This document shows positions 5,325 to 52,483 of a stretch of DNA of 64,000 bases, piece after piece. Below the pieces are notes generated by a model. The model was given only the letters and a program-made list of their open reading frames with translations, was not told the DNA's origin and did no database searches. Position 1 is the stretch's first letter. The number at the start of each line of letters is the position of its first letter. Made by a program: the position numbers and the translations under genes. Source of the DNA: a virus. The stretch covers positions 34,692 to 98,691 of IMG/VR virus record IMGVR_UViG_3300028048_000053. One strand, given 5' to 3'.

Positions 5325-5643
5325 AGATTAGATAACGGGTAGCAGCGCCCATAATACTATGAATAGATGATAGATAGTAAATAAAGAGCTGCGTTGATGA
5401 AGTGCTGGTTGTACGTTCTATGCCGAAACGTAGCCGTGGAATGGCCTTTTGGTTATAGGTTTAGCCTCGCTCCCGTGAAGGCGAGGGATGAAAACCTCCC
5501 AGATAGAATCGCTGTAAGAAGGATTCATGTTCAGGTTTTTGTACTTTTTTCACCGAAAAGGCGGTTGGATGAAAAAAGTACGGTTCAGTGAAGCCGCTGT
5601 AACCAGAAAGAAGAGGGCTGCAGACCTCTTAAGTGCGTTATAT

Positions 5644-5728
5644 ACTCGAATGGCGAAATTGGTAGACGCGCCTGCCTCAAAAGCAGGTGTCGAAAGACGT
5701 GTGGGTTCGAGTCCCACTTTGAGTACCA
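5644..5728 (+). tRNA. tRNA-Leu(CAA), type II, CCA encoded
   Basis: Acceptor ACTCGAA/TTTGAGT, anticodon stem CCTGC/GCAGG, loop CTCAAAA, long variable arm. Confidence 0.85.
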
Positions 5729-5865
5729 ATAGGAAATGCTTGTTGTGAAAGGCAACTCCTTCTGGCTCGACAGAAGAGAAATAATCGAGAAAGGTAGAGG
5801 ATAGCAGGAAAACAACCTGCGGCCGCAAGCATAGTTGAAACCTCACCTCCAACTGGCCATAAAAA

Positions 5866-5910
5866 TTATTTGAAAATTATAAAAAAATATTATATAATAT
5901 ATATAGAAAT
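5866..5910 (+). promoter_or_regulatory. promoter-like repeat copy
   Basis: consensus repeat; a 380-nt GC-rich ORF-free stretch follows before the HNH gene. Confidence 0.5.
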
Positions 5911-6288
5911 GGTGGTTAAAGACTATTACCTCCTCGTGGTGCCACTGGACACGCTTGATTCTATCTCTATAGAGCGTGACGAAAAATAGTCAGATAATAT
6001 TAGCTTGCCTCAAGAACGGGGCCCTCTTGGATGGTGAGATAGCCAAGGGGATACAACAGTAACTCGAAGGTACCAAAGGAATTCGGCTATAAAGTGCGTA
6101 GCGAGCCGTAGAAAAGCTAAAATTATCGAGGTTTGCGGTCAACCTAAAACCGCACTATCTGGCGCAGTAGTGGAACTGGCTAACACGCCGGCCTTTCGTT
6201 AGATTATTTCAAGAGTAGAAAATTTTTTGGTCATCGAAGTTCAATTATCGAAGTGCATTTTTTAAGAATAATGAAAGGAGTAGATGAT

Positions 6289-7017
6289 ATGTCTATTTTA
6301 AATAATTATTCAAACGAAGAATTTGCACGAATTGTATCTGAAAGTATTAATTATAGGGATTGCCTCTACGCTTTAGGATATAATTCATATTCAGGAGCGA
6401 CTATAACTTTGTTGAAATAGAGAATTTCAGATTTAAATCTTGACACTTCTCATTTTACCAGCAAAACACCTATTGAACGCTCGGAAGCTAATATTTTTAT
6501 AGAAAATTCAACCGCCGATCAAAAAACCTTGCGTAGATGGTATACAAAAGGCAATTACACCGAATATAAATGCTCTATATGCGGACAAGATCCTTTTTGG
6601 AATGGCAAAGAATTAACACTTATTCTAGACCATATCAACGGAAAACATACGGACGATAGACTAGAAAATCTTCGTTGGGTTTGTCCGAACTGTAATTATC
6701 AATTAGAAACAACTAATGGTAAAAACAAGCAACATAGAGAGCATAGTTTAAATTATTGTATTGATTGCGGTCAACCTATTTCTAAATCGGCAACAAGGTG
6801 TTTATCTTGCGCCAATAAGGCAAGAGCCTCTAAAGATGTTCCGTATGTATCTAGAGAAGAATTAAAACGCTTAATTAGGATCATGCCTTTTACTTAGATA
6901 GGTGAAAAATTTGGAGTTAGCGATAATGCGGTACGAAAATGGTGTGATAAATATTAGTTACCAAGAAAATCTTCTGAAATAAAAAAAATAACTAATGATG
7001 ACTGGAAAAAAATATGA
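6289..7017 (+). CDS. HNH homing endonuclease (reads through 3 in-frame TAG)
   Basis: WNGK...HINGK...NLRWVCPNC HNH motif; the frame continues through TAG at 6409, 6895 and 6955 to TGA 7015-7017. The C-terminus has a GVSDNAVRKWC helix-turn-helix-like tail. Confidence 0.75.
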
Positions 7018-7215
7018 GTGCAATTCTCATATCTAGCACCAAAGCCGGAGATTGGGGTTTCAAGCACCCCCTGCGTCACCACCTGCGGCGATAGTGCCGC
7101 AAACCGATAACACGGATTTGAGAAGTAAACTACCACCGGCATGGCGTCATGAACCATGATATGTGGCTTAGCGGAAATTCGGTATATAAAGAAGCGAAGT
7201 AACTTCTCTCTATAT

Positions 7216-8335: not shown

Positions 8336-8424
8336 GCGCGGTGATTTCACCCGGCGGTGAACCTAGTCTTGAAAACTAGTGGAGTCAGGGATGGCTTGGG
8401 GGTCGGCACCTCCGCCGCGCGCCA
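8336..8424 (+). tRNA. tRNA-Ser(TGA)-like, type II, atypical T-loop GTCGGCA, CCA encoded
   Basis: Acceptor GCGCGGT/GCCGCGC, anticodon stem CTAGT/ACTAG, loop CTTGAAA, long variable arm. Confidence 0.4.
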
Positions 8425-10401: not shown

Positions 10402-10476
10402 GCTGGTGTAGCTCAGCGGCAGAGCACGCGCCTTGTAAGCGCGGGGTCGAGATCTCGGAATTCTCCACCAGCCCCA
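10402..10476 (+). tRNA. tRNA-Thr(TGT), divergent T-arm, CCA encoded
   Basis: Acceptor GCTGGTG/CACCAGC, anticodon stem CGCGC/GCGCG, loop CTTGTAA; the T region GAGATCTCGGAATTCTC is non-canonical. Confidence 0.65.
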
Positions 10477-10720
10477 TATCACAGCCCTCTTAGCGTGTGT
10501 AAGACCAATAGGATAGAAGCTGGCCGGATATATCAGATTCCGTTTGTAATGCAGGGCCACGGGTGAAGCGGTTGTGATTTTTATACAGATAAAGACTCAT
10601 ACAGCAAATTTATAATATAAAATAAATGTCATTGGTTCGATTCCAATTTTAACAGCTTTTTGTTAAATAGCTCAATCTGGTAGAGCATTATTGTTTATTG
10701 AAAGAGTCTTGATTATATTT

Positions 10721-11012: not shown

Positions 11013-11223
11013 AGTTTAATAGAGGTATTCAGGTTGGAAATCTGATATAAATCCTCTAAATATATAACCGATAGGATGTAGGCTTAAAAGCAGCCATCAT
11101 TTAAAGAGTAGGTAATTTCCGCGGCGTTATCTTTTAGCGTAGCAGCACACTATCGACCCGGAGAAGGGGACAACGGGTATATAAATTTCCCTTTCTTATT
11201 TTATGTGAAAAAGGTGAATAAAA

Positions 11224-11597: not shown

Positions 11598-12395
11598 ATG
11601 AAAGATGCTCTTGGCGATCGCATGAAAGGTTTTTATGAAGATCGCTATCGTATCTATCTAACGAGACGAATGCCTGTTATTATCCGCGTTGATGGCAACG
11701 CTTTCCACACTTTTACACGCGGACTTGATAGACCGTTTGACGCAGATTTTATGAAAATTATGCAGAAAACTTGTCTATCTCTTTGCCAGAATATCCAAGG
11801 CTGCGTTGGTGGATATGTCCAGAGCGACGAGATTTCTCTCCTTTTGGTTGATTATCAGACCCTTGAATCTGATGCATGGTTCGATTATAACCTCCAGAAG
11901 ATTACTTCACTTGCGGCCGCCCGTGCCACGATGACTTTTAATGCGCTTGTTAGAGAATTGGTCAATAGATATATCCGTAAAGTAAGCAATGATCCTGACA
12001 TGGACGCAAGAAGATTAAACCTTTGGAGCGAAAAGCAGAATCGTGCTATGTTCGATGCTCGTGCCTTCAACATTCCCAAAGAAGAAGTATGCAACTACTT
12101 CATCTGGCGTCAAAAAGATGCCACTCGCAACAGTATTCAGGCCGCTGGCCAGGCACAATTCTCTCATAAAGAGCTTGAAGGTAAATCTCAGTCTGATATT
12201 CAGGAAATGCTGTTCCAGAAGGGGATTAATTGGAACAATTACACTATCCCCGAAAAGCGCGGCTCTTTTGTGCGAAGATATTTAGAAACTATTGGACAGG
12301 AAGATGGGACACTTACTGTGCGTCGTCCTTGGTGCATTGATGATGAAATGCCTATTCTCACCGAAGATAGAGGCTATATCGAAGAACTTATTTGA
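11598..12395 (+). CDS. Thg1-like protein (tRNA-His guanylyltransferase / 3-5 polymerase family)
   Basis: N-terminal RVDGNAFHTF...PFD motif typical of the Thg1/TLP family; 265 aa; RBS AAAGGAGG. Confidence 0.6.
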   Translation: MKDALGDRMKGFYEDRYRIYLTRRMPVIIRVDGNAFHTFTRGLDRPFDADFMKIMQKTCLSLCQNIQGCVGGYVQSDEISLLLVDYQTLESDAWFDYNLQKITSLAAARATMTFNALVRELVNRYIRKVSNDPDMDARRLNLWSEKQNRAMFDARAFNIPKEEVCNYFIWRQKDATRNSIQAAGQAQFSHKELEGKSQSDIQEMLFQKGINWNNYTIPEKRGSFVRRYLETIGQEDGTLTVRRPWCIDDEMPILTEDRGYIEELI

Positions 12396-12868: not shown

Positions 12869-12962
12869 GGCGGGTTCGTTTAACGGTAAGACAGCTGACT
12901 CTAAATCAGTCCATAGCCCCCTGAAGGAGCTTATGAAGGTTCGAATCCTTCACCCGCTGCCA
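12869..12962 (+). tRNA. amber suppressor tRNA, anticodon CTA, type II (long variable arm), discriminator G, CCA encoded
   Basis: Acceptor GGCGGGT/ACCCGCT, D-stem GTTT/AGAC, anticodon stem GCTGA/TCAGT, loop CTCTAAA (U33 and A37 present), 24-nt variable arm, T-arm GAAGGTTCGAATCCTTC. Confidence 0.75.
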
Positions 12963-13017
12963 AAGTCAAAGTTTACTGGAGTTCGTCGTGACTATAACCC
13001 TAAACCAGTAGTCCTAT

Positions 13018-13600
13018 GCGGGTATGGTGGAATGGTAGACACGGCGGACTTTTGTCCCAAGTACAAGGACATGAGCACTAGGATAGGAAACTTCCTAAGT
13101 GAATGTTGGCTAATTCGGCGAAAGTCTCAAGCAGATAACGCCGAGCTAAATTGAATATAGGTGCAACAAAGCTGAAATACAGAGAGGTCGCCTGTAGGTC
13201 TATGGCAGTTGAATAAGCAACTCCGCTTGTATGTATTAAGATTGAGCAGTAGTTGTTAAATGGAGTTAGATGAACAGCCTATACTCATAAATGTGTAGAG
13301 ACTATATACCAACTACCTAAGTCAAACGAGTTAGTAAGGAAACGGCACATTGAGTGGGAGCGTTTGATATGGTAAAGACATAGTCCAGACTACAACTTAA
13401 TAATAAAGCAGGTGCTACGAAGCCATTGACGTAAGTCCTTGTGGAGACTATCGTGGAACTCGAAAGAGCGGAAAGAGAAGCTGTAGTAAATGGAGTTAGA
13501 TGAACAGCCTGCTTTTATGTATTAAGGCTATGGTGACATAGAGTAGTAAGAAAATCCTCTGAGCTGAGCTCGTGCCGGTTCGAGTCCGGCTACCCGCACC
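13018..13600 (+). tRNA. tRNA-Leu(TAA) interrupted by a group I intron in the anticodon loop (exons 13018-13051 and 13550-13600)
   Basis: 5-prime half GCGGGTA-TG-GTG..CAC-G-GCGGA-CTT, 3-prime half AAAA-TCCTC-TGAGCTGAGCTCG-GCCGGTTCGAGTCCGGC-TACCCGC-A-CCA. The spliced loop is CTTAAAA. Confidence 0.75.
13052..13549 (+). ncRNA. group I intron (498 nt, no ORF) within tRNA-Leu(TAA)
   Basis: Inserted after U34 as in the classical tRNA-Leu(UAA) intron; exon ends in U, intron ends in G. R-like element TAGAGACTATA near 13296, S-like ACATAGTCC near 13378, internal 24-nt direct repeat. Confidence 0.7.
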
Positions 13601-13758
13601 ACGTAAGAGCCATACAGCAAAATTTTATTTACAAGATATTTTTTATAGAATTTTGATAAGGATAGTCCAGAGATAGGCTCTTGTAATTAAAAAATCTCTG
13701 GCTGTAAAAGGGAAGTTAGAAATTTGAATAATATTTCTAATTTCCCTATTTTTTATTT

Positions 13759-15589: not shown

Positions 15590-16235
15590 TACAATATTCA
15601 AAGTATATATTCATAAATTGAAAATAGATGGAAGAGTCTATGTTGGATAGACGAGTTCATCTATGGAAGAGCGCGCTGGCAGTAACGGATATAGATATAA
15701 ACATTGCACCAAATTTTGGCACGCGATTTAGAAATATGGGTGGGAGTCTTTTGAGCATATATTAATTAAGGATGGATTAACTTTAGACGAAGCAAATCAG
15801 TTAGAAGATGAACTGATATTAAAATATAATAGCATTGAAAATGGATTTAATATTAATCGCGGTGGACTAAATCATCTTTGGACAGATGAATAGCGAAAAA
15901 TAATGTCCGAAAGAAATATGGGAGAAAAAAATCCCAATTACGGGAAACCGCGTTCCGAAGAGACCAAGAAAAAAATAGGAGCTGCAAATGCAGTTGCTCA
16001 ACTGGGAAAGCATCACTCTGAAGAAACCAAAAAGAAAATGAGCAAATCTCATCGTAAGCAAGAACCTATTTTATGTGTCGAAACGGGAAATATTTATAAC
16101 GATGCGATAGAAGCCGCAGAATCCATTGGTAAAAAAGCTTCTGCAGCGAATCATATTAGAGAAGTTTGCGATGGTAAGAGATTGTCGGCTTATTCATATA
16201 CATGGAAATATCTTGACAAAGATAAAGGAGAATAA
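15576..16235 (+). CDS. GIY-YIG homing endonuclease (3 in-frame TAG, one at the YVG-Q-T motif position)
   Basis: VYIHKL..GRVYVG-TAG-TS ... AI-TAG-KYGWESFEH; C-terminal NUMOD-like repeats; ends TAA 16233-16235. Confidence 0.7.
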
Positions 16236-16239
16236 AAAA

Positions 16240-17355
16240 ATGAAACTTAATAGTGGCTTAATTTTTAAATGGCTCAAATCCGAAAACACTTCCTCGAAAG
16301 AGTCACGACACCTTGGAAAATTAACTCGTCAACATCTTGGAATGACATCGCGCCAATATAGAAAAATGTTGAGTGAAGGCAGACGCAAAACAAAGGTGCT
16401 GGAACGTCTTATGTCTGCAAACGAATGGGATAAAATAGACTTTTCCAAAATTCCTTCTCGCGCCGGTATGATTTACAAGAACGCGTTCGCGCGTCACGAC
16501 CTCGAGCGTATGCGCCAGGGCGCCACCCAGTCCTACGAGGATTTCGTCAAGGACAAGAACACCAAGGTTAATGCCAAGGCTTTGTATCCGTTTGACGTAG
16601 TTAAGGAGGCTATGGCTTTCGGTCAATGGGGCGGATACTACGGCTATGGCCGCAAGTCTCAGGCCCTCGACAACACTGAGCGTCTGATGGTCAATAAGTA
16701 CTGGGAGAACCTTGAAGATGTGTTCAATGGATACAGCTACAACGGTATCTGCGTCTGTGACACCTCAGGAAGCATGTATGGTGACCCCCTTGCAGTAGCC
16801 ATCTCTATTGCGATGTATTGTGCCGAGCATAATACCGGAGACTTTGCTAATCATTTCTTCACCTTTAGTAATAATCCTACTTTTGTAGAGATTGAAGGGG
16901 TTGATTTTGTTGATAAGGTCAACCGCATTGCCAAGGCTGATTGGGGTGGCAGCACCAATATCGAAGCGGTGTTTGATAAGATGCTCGCTATCGCAAAGCA
17001 GAACCATCTGAGCCAGGATGATATTCCAAATATTATAATTGTTTCGGATATGGAATTTGATGACTGCGTTTGCGGCTATGGAGGAAATGGACGCTGGGGC
17101 CAAGGAAGAGAAGTTAATCAGACACTTTTTGAAACCATTGAAAAACATTGGAATGCAGCAGGGTATCGTCTTCCTTTGGTAACATTTTGGAATGTGCAAG
17201 CACGTCAAAATAATATTCCTATGCGATCTACAAAATATGTAAATTTTATTAGTGGAATGTCTCCGATGATTTTTGAACAAGTTATGAAAAATCTTACGGC
17301 GATAGATCTTGTAATGGATAAACTTAATAATAAACGTTATGAGTGTATTCATTAA
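16240..17355 (+). CDS. C-terminal part of a split DUF2828-like gene, von Willebrand A domain (DTSGSM MIDAS motif)
   Basis: ATG 16240 with RBS AAGGAGAA; 372 aa with ICVCDTSGSMYGDP; the ORF-track 5-prime extension overlaps the GIY-YIG gene. Confidence 0.6.
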   Translation: MKLNSGLIFKWLKSENTSSKESRHLGKLTRQHLGMTSRQYRKMLSEGRRKTKVLERLMSANEWDKIDFSKIPSRAGMIYKNAFARHDLERMRQGATQSYEDFVKDKNTKVNAKALYPFDVVKEAMAFGQWGGYYGYGRKSQALDNTERLMVNKYWENLEDVFNGYSYNGICVCDTSGSMYGDPLAVAISIAMYCAEHNTGDFANHFFTFSNNPTFVEIEGVDFVDKVNRIAKADWGGSTNIEAVFDKMLAIAKQNHLSQDDIPNIIIVSDMEFDDCVCGYGGNGRWGQGREVNQTLFETIEKHWNAAGYRLPLVTFWNVQARQNNIPMRSTKYVNFISGMSPMIFEQVMKNLTAIDLVMDKLNNKRYECIH

Positions 17356-49378: not shown

Positions 49379-50691
49379 TGGACTATACTGCCAAAGATAT
49401 AGTTTCTCTATCTGCTGGAAGAGCTTTTCGTGAAAAATTAGGTATGTATCTTTCCGCTGATAAACAGGAAGCTATTAATTTAGGATTAAGAGAATTAATT
49501 GTAAATGTTCAAGATGAATATGAGGTTTACAAACCAAGTAATCCAAAACTTATAATTACACTCGATACCAAATCCCACGAAATAAATGTAGAAGATAATA
49601 TGCGCGGAATCCCAGTGGGTTTGCGAGAAGATGGAATTAATTCTTTAACTGCGGCATTTCTTATTCCTCATTCAGGAGGAAAACATACTGAAGGAGTTTA
49701 TTCAAGCGCTGTTGGTATAAACGGAGAAGGAAACAAAATTGTATGCCACACAGCAGAATGGCTCGAAGTTGAAGTTCATAGAGATGGAAAGATATATAGA
49801 CAACGCTTTGAATCAGACGACGAAGGCGCTCATGCAATGTCAGATGTGACAGAAACACAACCAGTTAGTGGCACTGGAACTTTTATCTCATATAAGCCAG
49901 ACCCAAAGGTATATGGAGATATTTTTATTGATATAGATGCTTTACGAAAAATGCTGCATGAAATGTCTATGTTCTCTACTGGACTGAGAATTGAGTTATG
50001 GGTAGATAATAAACCTGAAATTTTTTATTCAGAAAGTGGATTAATTGATGGTTTATCTACCGAAAATCGACTTTCAAAACCATTTTCTTATTATTATGAA
50101 ACTCCTGATTGTAAAGTTGAATTAGCTTTACAATGGGTAAGTAAAAAGGGTGAAATTAGAGGTTACGCAAATAATCTTTATATGCCCGACGGAGGAGCTT
50201 TTATTACAGGATTTAAATCTTCGCTAACAAGAACTTTTAATTCTCTTGCTGGAGAAAAATTTGATAGCGACGCTATTAGAAATGTTTTAGACGGCTTTGT
50301 AAGTGTAAAAGTTAAAATGGGACAGTTTACGAATCAACAAAAAACAGCTTTAGCCAATCCAGAAGCACGAACAGCCACTTCAACAGCCATTTCTAATGCT
50401 TTAAAAGAGTATCAACATGACAGACCTAAAGACTTTGCGCAAGTCGTCGAATTACTTACTAAACTCTCGCGTGCGGAAGCCGCTGCCGAGAGAGCGCGTA
50501 AGCAAGTCTTAGAGGCTACTAAAGACATTGAGCGAAATCAGAAGAAGAAGGTCTTTGCCAGTGATAAGTTAAAAGATGCCGAATATTTAGGTCAAAATTC
50601 AACCCTCCTTATAGTGGAAGGAAATTCTGCTCTGGGCGGAATGGCTCAAGCAAGAGACCCTTCAAAATTTGGCCTTCTGGCAATTAGGGGT
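49378..50691 (+). CDS. DNA topoisomerase II large subunit (T4 gp39/GyrB-like), exon 1
   Basis: GyrB ATPase region ending at the conserved ..GLLAIRG|K site; the stop TAA immediately after belongs to the intron. Confidence 0.7.
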
Positions 50692-51946
50692 AAATAAAAT
50701 TGCCCCAACTTACCTAACCAATTCATTATTGGGGTCTATAAAATATTATAGGCTAACGGGGAAACCTGACCAGTTTCTAAAAGTGGCTCTTTTAGTTAAG
50801 ATGAAGGCAATCCCGTGAGGACTTGTGAATTTGTTCATAGAAAAATTAGAAAAGAGGTGAAAAGATTAAATGGAAAAAGGACAAAAATTTGGTTTATTAA
50901 CACTAATTAAAGAAGTGCCTAGACCCGAGGGTAAAAATAGAAAAGGTAAATATTGGTTATGTCAATGCGACTGTGGAAATCAATGTATTAAATATCATTA
51001 TGATATTAGCCGTGGCGATACAAAATCTTGTGGCTGTCTGCAACACCGAAAACCGATTTATGATAAAAACGAACATGAAATTTCTAATCATGCCGGTATT
51101 TATGGTTTTCAAAATGTTTTTAATGGGCACTGGTACATTGGAAAAGCGAAAAATTTATATAACCGATACTGCCGTCATAAAAACGATTGGCAAACACATC
51201 AAGAAAAACAATTTTATCAAGCAATTAAAAAATATGGTTGGGATTCTTTTAATTATTATATATTAAAAGAATATTTAGAAATGCCGACTAGAGAAGAGCT
51301 TTCAGAACAAGAAGAATATTTTATTCAAAAATATGATTCTTATAAAAATGGATATAATGCTTCTTATATAAGTAGTGGAGGATTTTATTCAGAAGAGCAT
51401 CAGGAAAAATGTACCCAGATTTTAAAAAATTTAAACCAAAAACAAAAGAATGAAAATCATCCAAATACAGATTTTACAAAAAACGAAATTTTAGATATTT
51501 TTCATTTTGCAATGTTAGGTGCCCCAGTAAAAGAAATTTATGAGAAATATAAACATCATGACATTTCGTATGAAGGCTTCAAACAGATTTATAGAGGTCA
51601 ACATTTTCGAGATTATTTACCAAATAGTTGGGAGTCAAGACCTGTTGTTGCAACAAATTCAAAACTATGGGGAATAGATGTAATTGATATAAAAACACGT
51701 CTACTTAAAGGAGAAGATATTCAATCTATCTACCAAGATTATAAAGAGAAATGCTCTTTGGCAGTCATACAAAATATTAAAAACAATAAAACTTATAAAC
51801 AAATTCACCCTTGTATCGACTAATCGCGTTGTTGCGATGTAAGATTTCTATTAATACGAAATCTGAAAAGGTAAGCACCATAAACTAGAATAGCCAACTA
51901 GTTGGTGAAAAGTTAGTCAGTCCCAGTAGAAATACTGGATAAGATG
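50692..51946 (+). ncRNA. group I intron (1255 nt) in the topoisomerase II gene, carrying a homing-endonuclease ORF
   Basis: Exon 1 ends GGGGT; an IGS GCCCC lies 10 nt into the intron (P1 with a U.G at the splice site); the intron ends ...GATAAGATG (omega-G); exon 2 restores LRGK|ILNV-type continuity (..IRGK|IINAMSNNEE..EEIKLLLSALN); 3-prime region contains TAGTC. Confidence 0.65.
50870..51823 (+). CDS. Zn-ribbon plus GIY-YIG homing endonuclease (intron-encoded, no TAG)
   Basis: KFGLLTLI...WLCQCDCGN..SCGC zinc ribbon, then GIYGFQNVFNGHWYIGKAKNLYNRYCRHK..AIKKYGWDSFNYYIL GIY-YIG core; 317 aa. Confidence 0.75.
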   Translation: MEKGQKFGLLTLIKEVPRPEGKNRKGKYWLCQCDCGNQCIKYHYDISRGDTKSCGCLQHRKPIYDKNEHEISNHAGIYGFQNVFNGHWYIGKAKNLYNRYCRHKNDWQTHQEKQFYQAIKKYGWDSFNYYILKEYLEMPTREELSEQEEYFIQKYDSYKNGYNASYISSGGFYSEEHQEKCTQILKNLNQKQKNENHPNTDFTKNEILDIFHFAMLGAPVKEIYEKYKHHDISYEGFKQIYRGQHFRDYLPNSWESRPVVATNSKLWGIDVIDIKTRLLKGEDIQSIYQDYKEKCSLAVIQNIKNNKTYKQIHPCID

Positions 51947-52483
51947 AAAATTATAAATGCCATGTCAAACAACGAAGAGGATATTTATCAAAACGAAGAA
52001 ATTAAGCTCTTGCTTAGTGCTTTGAATATTACACCGGGCAAGTATGATGCTAAAAAGCTAAGATATGGAAAGCTAGGTATTTGCGTGGATGCGGACGCAG
52101 ATGGTGGGCATATAGCATTATTAATCATGGCCGCAATGACGTATCTCGCTCCAGATTTTATTAAAGAAGGGCGTTTATGCTGGTTACGTTCTCCTTTGTA
52201 TATTGTAAACAATAGAGGAAATGAAACGTATTATTTTTCCGATGAAGAATACAATAAAGTTCGTGGAAAAATAAAAGGGGAAGTAACTAGAAATAAAGGA
52301 TTAGGTGAATTATCAGCAGAGTCGGCCCGTAAATCCATGTTTGACCCAGAATATCAAAGACTGGACATTTTAGAGTATGACCCGCACGCGATTGAGCTAT
52401 TGACACAGTTAATGGGCTCTGATGTAACTCCACGAAAAGATTTTATTTTTAAAAATGTTGATTTTAGCACAATTTCAGAGTAA
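51947..52483 (+). CDS. DNA topoisomerase II large subunit, exon 2 (Toprim region)
   Basis: KIINAMSNNEEDIYQNEEIKLLLSALN... then Toprim motif LGICVDADADGGHIALLIMAAM; exons 1 plus 2 give 617 codons in frame. Confidence 0.7.
   Translation, partial: KIINAMSNNEEDIYQNEEIKLLLSALNITPGKYDAKKLRYGKLGICVDADADGGHIALLIMAAMTYLAPDFIKEGRLCWLRSPLYIVNNRGNETYYFSDEEYNKVRGKIKGEVTRNKGLGELSAESARKSMFDPEYQRLDILEYDPHAIELLTQLMGSDVTPRKDFIFKNVDFSTISE

Follow-up and report, generated by a model that had tools for sequence, protein, structure and literature searches.

The group I intron of the tRNA-Leu(UAA) gene, classically represented by the cyanobacterial and plastid (Anabaena-type) introns, lies between positions 34 and 35 of the tRNA, at the insertion site CUU/...g/AAAA (bioRxiv 10.1101/2020.01.27.920355; PMC13011429). 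The surveys of bacterial tRNA introns in these two sources leave out phages. According to a 2014 review, every phage intron then known was located in a protein-coding gene, although phages have many tRNA genes (PMC3984707), and Devoto et al., who described unclassified introns in the tRNA genes of Lak megaphages, knew of no earlier report (bioRxiv 10.1101/356790). Our literature search, in which subscription journals were not covered, yielded no description of a phage tRNA gene interrupted by a group I intron. Here, we analyze a 64,000-nt stretch of viral DNA (positions 34,692–98,691 of the IMG/VR record IMGVR_UViG_3300028048_000053; hereafter, the window), in which a tRNA-Leu(UAA) gene is split by an intron. 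Very probably, the locus is a tRNA-Leu(UAA) gene that belongs to the tRNA array of a large TAG-recoding phage and is interrupted between U34 and A35 by a group I intron of the bacterial/plastid family. The intron family and its mechanism have been described before; new here are the phage setting, a subtype enriched in phages, and the structured RNA modules carried as cargo in the intron loops.

When introns were allowed, ARAGORN detected tRNA-Leu(taa) at 13018–13601, designated i(35,499), and joining the exons gave a canonical 85-nt class II tRNA-Leu(taa) with A73 and CCA. The 5′ exon ends in GGCGGA-CUU, the 3′ exon reads AAAA-UCCUC ... ACCCGC-A-CCA, and the insert between them (13052–13550) is 499 nt long. 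U13051 is the end of the exon, and G13550 is the end of the insert. The junction 13051|13551 is the only one among those scanned that yields an 85-nt tRNA-Leu(UAA) with the 7-nt loop CUUAAAA, a U at −1, and a terminal G; the spliced junction is CUU|AAAA, between positions 34 and 35. An initial annotation of the locus, made from the sequence alone, had read the tRNA halves (..GCGGA-CTT and AAAA-TCCTC), the loop CTTAAAA with the anticodon TAA, the insertion at the classical 34/35 site, and the exon-end U and intron-end G in the same way. Two of its numbers need correction: the spacing it gave as 498 nt is 499 nt, and the gene, for which it gave an end at 13600, extends to 13601 with the encoded CCA. 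Neither default ARAGORN nor the Rfam tRNA model detected the split gene.

The predicted sequence across the spliced junction is GGCGGACUU|AAAAUCCUC. More than 120 IMG/VR contigs carry an uninterrupted phage tRNA-Leu(UAA) gene with the same 5′ exon stretch and the junction GGTGGAATGGTAGACACnnnGGACTT|AAAATCC (GGACTT|AAAATCC). Because uninterrupted phage genes have exactly the predicted junction, the split halves are not a chance arrangement. In one of them (L382), the anticodon arm is identical to that of the split gene, including a C28×U42 mismatch. Neither a second tRNA-Leu(UAA) nor an uninterrupted copy that would explain the two halves was found within the 64-kb window; the other leucine tRNAs of the array are Leu(UAG) and Leu(CAA). 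The UUA codon is frequent, e.g., 19 of the 72 Leu codons of topoisomerase II, and the split gene is predicted to be the sole tRNA of the array able to read it.

The initial annotation had proposed a covariance search with the Rfam model Intron_gpI (RF00028) and folding of P1–P9, and a group I core was found by both. In a local scan, RF00028 aligned end to end with 13042–13408 (E = 1.7e-10). The anatomy of the full intron was derived via homologues, and each pair was checked against the window sequence (Table 1). All helices from P1 to P9 can be written with standard pairs, and they covary in the homologues. At the 5′ splice site, the U13051·G13073 wobble pair is flanked by C13049-G13075 and U13050-A13074; the splice-site U·G is present in 13 of 13 aligned homologues, and CUU/GAG is invariant among 16 sequences. 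The R-like (TAGAGACTATA, 13296–13306) and S-like (ACATAGTCC, 13378–13386) elements, already noticed in the initial annotation, pair with each other as P7, and P7 and P3 together form a pseudoknot. Among 16 homologues, pairing is seen in 96.9% of the P7 cells, and two pairs show compensatory changes. The third pair of P9 is U-A in the window and C-G in 11 of 16 homologues. The CCUAAG/UAUGG motif of P8 is presumably like the 11-nt GAAA-tetraloop receptor. Minimum free energy (MFE) folds of separate segments reproduced P1, P2, P4–P5, P8, P6, P9a, and P9b, with z-scores of −2.3, −1.4, −0.9, 0.06, and −3.1; since these z-scores are modest, the weight of the argument is comparative. The anatomy would fit an IC3-type intron (P2 present, GAAA in L2, the CCUAAG/UAUGG motif in P8, a 4-bp P5 hairpin, and a gap of just 4 nt from P7 to P3′), and P2.1, P5abc, and P7.1/P7.2 are absent. 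A first impression of an IA or T4-td-like core (GUAGAGACUAUA/AAGACAUAGUCC) was ruled out, because a covariance model of the phage introns (R2, described below) ties the core to bacterial tRNA-Leu introns and because P7.1/P7.2 do not fit. No endonuclease-like ORF was found in the intron, whether the standard code was used or TAG, TGA, or both were taken as sense codons.

Two-step transesterification is the standard chemistry of group I introns, and its course at this locus can be proposed from the fold. The array transcript would fold so that the exon CUU pairs with the internal guide GAG in P1, which places the U13051·G13073 wobble at the splice site. Free guanosine bound in P7 would attack after U13051. 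G13550 would then take the guanosine site, and the freed 3′-OH of U34 would attack after G13550, joining the exons into the loop CUUAAAA of the array's only UUA-reading tRNA. The anticodon stem formed between the exons probably aids alignment of the 3′ splice site, as in Anabaena.

The comparative evidence comes from phage and bacterial relatives. A scan with a core pattern retrieved one IMG/VR contig (L001, 310 kb), in which tRNA-Leu(taa) is split by 483 nt. The 3′ junction pattern GTAAG|AAAATCC...GGTTCGARTCC retrieved 62 viral loci in IMG/VR, which after junction refinement represent 50 distinct introns of 198–977 nt, including that of the window. The initial annotation had called an intron of this kind unusual; this holds for the literature (PMC3984707; bioRxiv 10.1101/356790) but not for sequence space, given the 62 phage loci. 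All 50 distinct introns follow ...GGACUU|...G|AAAAUC and end in G. The ending GUAAG|AAAAUCC is found in 47 of them, including the window's, and UAUG, CAGG, and UACG in the other three; it is near-universal because the pattern of the first scan required it. A pairwise MAFFT alignment of the window with L001 was misled by the insertions, and a multiple MAFFT alignment (A2) of the 15 shortest phage introns (198–229 nt) and an edited window intron, in which we replaced module a, the P8 tip, and module b each by GAAA, was used instead. RNAalifold on A2 recovered P2, P3, P4/P5, P8, P9, P9b, and the exon–exon anticodon stem. When P1 and the P7 pseudoknot are included, 96.3% of the cells are paired, compared with 30–38% when the partners are slid by 1–3 columns; compensatory changes are seen in 31 of 53 pairs, and the observed values were reached in none of 500 shuffles. 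Several short homologues score above the Rfam cut-off (L038, 73.3 and 61.3 bits; L011, 62.1; L056, 61.0; L044, 58.8).

R2, the covariance model built from A2 (221 positions, 47 pairs), matched the untrimmed window from the 5′ exon to the 3′ exon (13044–13558, 90.7 bits) with the insertions exactly at L6, L8, and L9; as a point against our assignment, this match is partly circular because the trimmed window copy is among the 16 seed sequences. R2 also matched all 62 viral loci and, at full length and with up to 189 bits, 80 of 80 bacterial tRNA-Leu(UAA) intron loci. In the alignment of the bacterial matches, which was fitted to the model, 94.3% of the cells are paired (31–41% when slid) and 41 of 47 pairs show compensatory changes. 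These matches, the bacterial covariation, and the classical insertion site together place the window intron in the bacterial/plastid tRNA-Leu(UAA) intron family.

Table 1. Features of the split tRNA-Leu(UAA) gene, its intron, and the RNA modules. Coordinates are those of the window; R1 is the covariance model of the module.
Feature	Position	Strand	Evidence
tRNA-Leu(UAA) 5′ exon: acceptor strand, D arm, anticodon stem 5′ strand, C32 U33 U34	13018..13051	+	ARAGORN, introns allowed; same stretch in uninterrupted phage tRNA-Leu genes
Group I intron, 499 nt, no endonuclease-like ORF	13052..13550	+	Rfam RF00028, 46.1 bits; R2, 90.7 bits
P1: exon CUU + intron UUGUCC (13049–13057) with GGACAUGAG (13067–13075)	13049..13075	+	Listed pairs; MFE fold agrees
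P2 hairpin, GAAA tetraloop L2 (13087–13090)	13076..13101	+	MFE fold; 10/10 pairs compensatory in homologues
P3: GUUGG (13105–13109) with CCAAC (13309–13313)	13105..13313	+	5/5 pairs covary; 100% of cells paired
P4: 13115–13120 with 13139–13144; P5: 13124–13127 with 13133–13136	13115..13144	+	MFE fold, covariation
P6 stem: 13153–13161 with 13278–13286; loop replaced by module a	13153..13286	+	Pair list
Module a, GGUGCAAC to GUUGUUAAAUGGAGUUAGAUGAACAGCC, 132 nt, holds repeat 13257–13280	13154..13285	+	R1, 73.5 bits, E = 6.8e-17
P7 guanosine-binding helix: G13298 + 13300–13304 with 13381–13386, A13299 bulged	13298..13386	+	Pair list
P8: receptor-like CCUAAG (13316–13321) with UAUGG (13368–13372); 32-nt apical extension (13329–13360)	13314..13374	+	MFE fold, covariation
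P9: ACUAC (13389–13393) with GUAGU (13543–13547)	13389..13547	+	Pair list
P9a 17-bp helix: 13396–13412 with 13508–13526, capped by module b	13396..13526	+	MFE z = −3.07
Module b, 111 nt, holds repeat 13487–13510	13405..13515	+	R1, 73.6 bits, E = 6.6e-17
P9b hairpin, GUGA (GNRA-type) tetraloop	13528..13541	+	MFE fold; 5/5 pairs covary
Terminal guanosine (omega-G), ..GUAGUAAG|AAAAUCC	13550	+	Sequence
tRNA-Leu(UAA) 3′ exon: A35–A38, anticodon stem 3′ strand, long variable arm, T arm, acceptor strand, A73, encoded CCA	13551..13601	+	ARAGORN

Compared by description only, the cyanobacterial and plastid (Anabaena-type) intron shares with the window intron its host gene and 34/35 site (bioRxiv 10.1101/2020.01.27.920355; PMC13011429), the splice-site U·G, the terminal G, exons that pair as the anticodon stem, and the compact core without P2.1, P5abc, or P7.1/P7.2. 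The window intron differs in its location in a phage tRNA array, its length (499 nt versus about 250 nt), its GUAAG end, and the expansion of L6, L8, and L9a, two of which contain a foreign structured module. The introns of bacteria other than cyanobacteria (surveyed by Williams 2020 and in mSystems 2026; here, loci L182–L301) are related to it through the R2 matches, the covarying helices, and the GUAAG|AAAAUCC end. The 3′ junction pattern is present in more than 120 bacterial genomes of Alpha- and Gammaproteobacteria, Acidobacteriota, Bacteroidota, and Clostridia, and the bacterial introns resemble the window intron in length range, including versions of ~700 nt that by size are able to hold an endonuclease gene. 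ARAGORN detected the split tRNA-Leu(taa) in 97 of 120 bacterial loci, nearly always as the sole tRNA per 8 kb, whereas the window gene stands in an array. None of 100 bacterial intron loci carries the module. The subtype motifs AAAUGUGUAGAGAC, AGACAUAGUCCAGAC, and GAGUAGUAAG are found in 9–23 of the 62 viral loci and in 0–2 of the 120 bacterial loci; AAAUGUGUAGAGAC and AGACAUAGUCCAGAC, which mark the subtype of the window intron, occur in viral loci only in this comparison. The classical phage group I introns (T4 td, nrdB, and nrdD; SPO1 DNA polymerase; Twort; mycobacteriophage cluster J) are likewise phage-borne and often linked to homing endonucleases, but they interrupt ORFs, whereas the window intron splits a tRNA gene and is of the bacterial tRNA-intron family.

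Other split tRNAs were seen in the course of these comparisons. At nine bacterial loci (L223, L246, L235, L245, L210, L244, L251, L197, and L212), a second, weaker R2 match lies ~500 nt from the tRNA-Leu intron, which suggests a neighboring tRNA split by a related intron. The viral contig L038 (IMGVR_UViG_3300034013_000942, 41 kb) has three tRNAs split by group I introns, at 112–384, 5359–5644, and 5850–6132: Thr(GGU), Leu(UAA), and Met(CAU), with 73.3, 61.3, and 42.3 Rfam bits, respectively. In other viral loci, split Arg, Asn, Ala, Pro, and CUA tRNAs are suggested by ARAGORN.

The window intron is expanded at three peripheral sites where insertions are tolerated, L6, L8, and L9a. The P6 region of its relatives is 24–42 nt long without a module and 112–113 nt long with one, and that of the window is 148 nt; the P9 region is 39–48 nt in all IMG/VR relatives and 160 nt in the window. 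A metagenome scan with a pattern specific to the P9a/module-b junction of the window gave no match. In a further metagenome scan, six contigs were retrieved in which P9a of a tRNA-Leu(UAA) intron bears a module; two of these contigs (L423 and L426) have the two-module layout of the window with a different module subfamily. The presence of different subfamilies at P9a, as in the window and L423, would point to repeated insertion or exchange. The metagenome contig L428 is syntenic with the window (Pro-Gln-Gln, Thg1-like gene, tRNA(CUA), split Leu(UAA), Lys-Cys), and its Thg1-like gene has 80% nucleotide identity to that of the window. In the L428 intron, L6 contains a 148-aa HNH ORF with five in-frame TAG codons (Pfam PF01844, 27.3 bits; cut-off 21.4), and P9a contains a module. 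Because an HNH gene is located in L6 of L428 and modules are located in L6 and L9a, these loops appear to be cargo sites for either a homing endonuclease gene or an RNA module. The HNH-bearing relative suggests that the lineage spreads, or once spread, by homing; having no ORF, the window intron is not autonomously mobile now.

Besides the partial circularity of the R2 match, several points weigh against an active group I intron at this locus. The RF00028 score is below the gathering cut-off of 50 bits, and nothing is reported at that cut-off; the shortfall coincides with the 114-nt P6 insertion and a missed true P9, and the alignment stops 140 nt short of the 3′ splice site. P1 has one mismatch (U13052×U13072), and the anticodon stem has another (C13045×U13558). 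With ~270 nt inserted at its periphery, the intron could fold slowly or incorrectly. Self-splicing and catalysis in vivo are predicted from the intact core, and the assignment to subgroup IC3 is based on the architecture and on published family descriptions. The view is limited to 64 kb of the genome, and a second intact tRNA-Leu(UAA) may lie outside. The low Rfam score, the mismatches, the three large insertions, and the absence of an ORF, when the syntenic L428 retains its HNH gene, could also be explained by a splicing-dead relic in a pseudogene copy of tRNA-Leu(UAA) that has lost the endonuclease and gained insertions. This explanation is unlikely. All core helices are intact, and the junction and P7 sequences match those of the homologues, in the invariant columns of A2. 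The insertions are confined to the terminal loops L6, L8, and L9a, where relatives carry the homing endonuclease gene, and two independent contigs, L423 and L426, retain the two-module layout. The anticodon-stem mismatch is shared with the uninterrupted phage tRNA-Leu of L382, and a dead copy would leave the array without its sole tRNA-Leu(UAA) when UUA is a common codon.

The locus might instead be bacterial, a piece of host chromosome or of another mobile element, and its intron would then be an ordinary tRNA-Leu(UAA) intron of bacteria. Introns of this family occur widely in bacterial genomes, neither a nucleotide match to the window nor a relative of the intron was found among GenBank phages, and the contig itself is not among the matches of the IMG/VR scans. 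Such an origin is nevertheless improbable in view of the surroundings of the gene. The first 14 kb of the window (GC content, 38%) contain 18 tRNA genes, whereas bacterial loci with this intron typically have one tRNA per 8 kb. PHROG and Pfam searches identified a topoisomerase II of the T4 type, with a homing endonuclease between the two parts of its large subunit. Further matches were to an NAD-dependent DNA ligase, an RNA ligase, a polynucleotide kinase, a phosphoesterase, a Thg1-like enzyme, a thymidylate synthase, and HNH endonucleases. A suppressor tRNA(CUA) with a long variable arm (12869–12962) is located 55 nt upstream of the split tRNA-Leu; together with the in-frame TAG codons in the HNH ORF of the window (about 6270–7016) and in that of L428, it indicates that this phage lineage reads TAG as a sense codon. 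The best 30 blast relatives of the window intron are all IMG/VR contigs, its subtype motifs are present in 9–12 of 62 viral loci and in none of 120 bacterial loci, and the module is absent from 100 bacterial loci. A tRNA-Leu(UAA) gene of a large phage thus remains the preferred reading of the locus.

The initial annotation had also noted a 24-nt direct repeat inside the intron. The 24-mer TAAATGGAGTTAGATGAACAGCCT is indeed present in exactly two copies (13257–13280 and 13487–13510), 230 nt apart, with 0 expected from 100 shuffles, but it marks the conserved 3′ end of a distinct structured RNA module and is not an intron-internal duplication. A recent duplication with no identity of its own could be supposed from the complete identity and close spacing of the 24-mers and from two more short direct repeats (D3 and D7) nearby. 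It is very improbable, as the modules differ in sequence and length (132 versus 111 nt) beyond their conserved ends, module a shares 85.7% identity over 126 nt with a stand-alone copy in L064, and the motif recurs mostly outside introns. The exact 24-mer is found in three other IMG/VR contigs, and its degenerate form AAATGGAGTTNRANGAACAGCC is found in at least 119. The motif is always the 3′ end of a unit of ~80–180 nt that starts with GGTGCYAC and is closed by flanking complementary bases. The pattern of the module (~110–130 nt) is a closing stem, GGUGCYAC..., a variable interior, and ...GURGUUAAAUGGAGUUNRANGAACAGCC. In 68 diverse copies, the closing stem and an inner helix (GCUAC/GUAGU, GCCCA/UGGGU, or GCAAC/GUUGU) covary; 81.6% of the cells are paired versus 24–50% when slid, and the covariation score is 0.445 versus 0.08–0.13.

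The covariance model of the module (R1) found exactly two copies in the window, two matches in the 62 viral Leu-intron loci, and no module in 100 bacterial intron loci (721 kb in total). The module stands alone next to tRNAs in more than 100 phage contigs. Among 104 distinct module contexts, eight have the module at P6 of a group I intron, and a tRNA on the same strand lies within 1 kb of the module in 90 of the 92 contexts with such a tRNA in the locus. Except for the group I model, there was no match in Rfam 15 over 12950–13680 at E up to 10, and no Rfam family covered the module positions in 16 loci. Searches in GenBank phages gave chance-level matches only, and no relevant paper was found in the literature with the module sequence string. 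By eye, the module was compared with hammerhead, 5S rRNA, RNase P, the 5′ end of 16S rRNA, signal recognition particle RNA, and a Shine–Dalgarno sequence with AUG; these candidates were rejected, as the diagnostic positions vary among copies and no Rfam match was found. Like the T4 species 1 and 2 RNAs (rnaC and rnaD) and the Rfam families drum, skipping-rope, and DUF3800-I, the module is structured, ~100–140 nt long, and co-oriented with adjoining phage tRNAs. Unlike them, it also occurs inside group I intron loops, and it has no Rfam match; identity with T4 species 1 or 2 RNA was ruled out, because no sequence similarity to rnaC or rnaD was found. The counts give no basis for linking the module to a Ro60-like gene, which is present at 10 of 119 module loci, compared with 7 of 62 intron loci and 4 of 120 intron-less ones; these loci are too short, and the difference is too small. 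Judging from conservation and covariation, the module is an undescribed structured RNA of phages, present here in two copies.

What the module does in the intron can be suggested only tentatively. It may, as one possible though less favored reading, represent a new class of phage small RNA with its own function, or a mobile RNA or DNA element, that uses the intron as a carrier. If so, the module would be expressed either stand-alone from tRNA-array transcripts or as L6/L9a cargo, the intron would be a delivery vehicle like the introns that carry homing endonucleases, and the 499-nt RNA released by splicing would be a product with two modules, not waste. Alternatively, the module is a tolerated or stabilizing peripheral element.

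Two further observations concern the surroundings of modules in other contigs. In L075 (1540–1760) and about ten similar loci (L079, L082, L093, L097, L102, L114, L145, L153, and L175 among them), the module is located inside another conserved, apparently structured RNA context, GAGAACGAGGCA...GCUGCAAAAUAUGAU[module]AUCAUAU..CUGCGCUUGAUGCGUGGG..CCGAAAC, for which no Rfam family was found at gathering thresholds. In the arrays of L098, L069, L070, and L108, drum, skipping-rope, and DUF3800-I scored above their cut-offs and cow-rumen-3 below (60.2 bits versus 86.7). Given these Rfam "orphan" RNAs, such module arrays are rich in small structured RNAs.

Enzymes that handle tRNA are densely represented in the window, at 11598–12395, 34422–35231, 39041–40291, and 42530–43631: a Thg1-like tRNA-His guanylyltransferase, a nucleotidyltransferase, an RNA ligase, a polynucleotide kinase, and a phosphoesterase. 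A T4-type pair of kinase and ligase serves in the repair of cleaved tRNAs. With the RNA ligase, polynucleotide kinase, and phosphoesterase at hand, the insert could in principle be removed by proteins (an endonuclease followed by the phage kinase and ligase) and not by RNA catalysis, but this is highly improbable given the complete covarying ribozyme core, the splice-site U·G, and the terminal G, and neither a bulge–helix–bulge motif nor a splicing endonuclease was seen. The large subunit of topoisomerase II is split at profile position 468 into ORFs at 49378–50697 and 51944–52483, with the homing endonuclease gene (50870–51823) between them, a layout that resembles T4 gene 39/mobA/gene 60; no group I core was found in this split gene with Rfam.

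The array contains a second split tRNA at 6161–7081, with its 5′ half at 6161–6196 and its 3′ half at about 7041–7081. It has an acceptor stem of seven pairs and a perfect anticodon stem (CCGGC/GCCGG), and its anticodon would be UCA, CCA, or UUA depending on the junction. The insert of ~845 nt contains an HNH endonuclease ORF at about 6270–7016 (PHROG 10822, E = 4.6e-46), which matches this family over the full length only when three in-frame TAG codons are read as sense. Neither Rfam nor R2 detected a group I core in this insert, and no junction gives a terminal G. The 5′ half has no exact match in IMG/VR. This gene is either a pseudogene or the site of an unclassified phage tRNA intron, as in the Lak phages or Vibrio phage pVa5. 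The Lak megaphages are also large, many-tRNA, alternative-code phages with interrupted tRNAs (bioRxiv 10.1101/356790), but their "enigmatic" inserts, located in Phe, Gly, Thr, and Tyr tRNAs, remained unclassified after Rfam tests, whereas the insert in tRNA-Leu(UAA) is a group I intron; the Lak case is closer to the split tRNA at 6161–7081.

Several other RNA-like matches are located in or near the array. A sub-threshold match to YrlA (Y-RNA-like; 45.1 bits, cut-off 69) at 10601–10718 adjoins tRNA-Pro, and 5.4 kb downstream of it, 16126–17355 encodes a 409-aa DUF2828/DUF7788/VWA protein (PHROG "RNA-binding protein") that is possibly Ro60-like. A 49-nt piece at 11074–11122 resembles positions 1096–1145 of the bacterial 23S rRNA model (31.6 bits), 8336–8420 gave a sub-threshold tRNA-Sec-like match (43.5 bits, cut-off 47), and 10402–10473 was identified as a tRNA by Rfam (49.1 bits) and missed by ARAGORN.

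The intron of the tRNA-Leu(UAA) gene would correct the generalization that group I introns of phages are confined to protein-coding genes, with dozens of distinct phage examples obtained from one pattern scan. This asymmetry between protein genes and tRNA genes has served in arguments on the targets of homing endonucleases and on coupling to translation. Phages are plausible vectors of the intron, which could explain its patchy, horizontally transferred distribution across bacterial phyla. As the tRNA and its intron are missed by default ARAGORN and at the Rfam gathering cut-off, the tRNA repertoires reported for phages, and the codon-usage arguments built on them, are biased. The module in the intron loops provides a concrete, testable case of a ribozyme that carries non-coding RNA as cargo.

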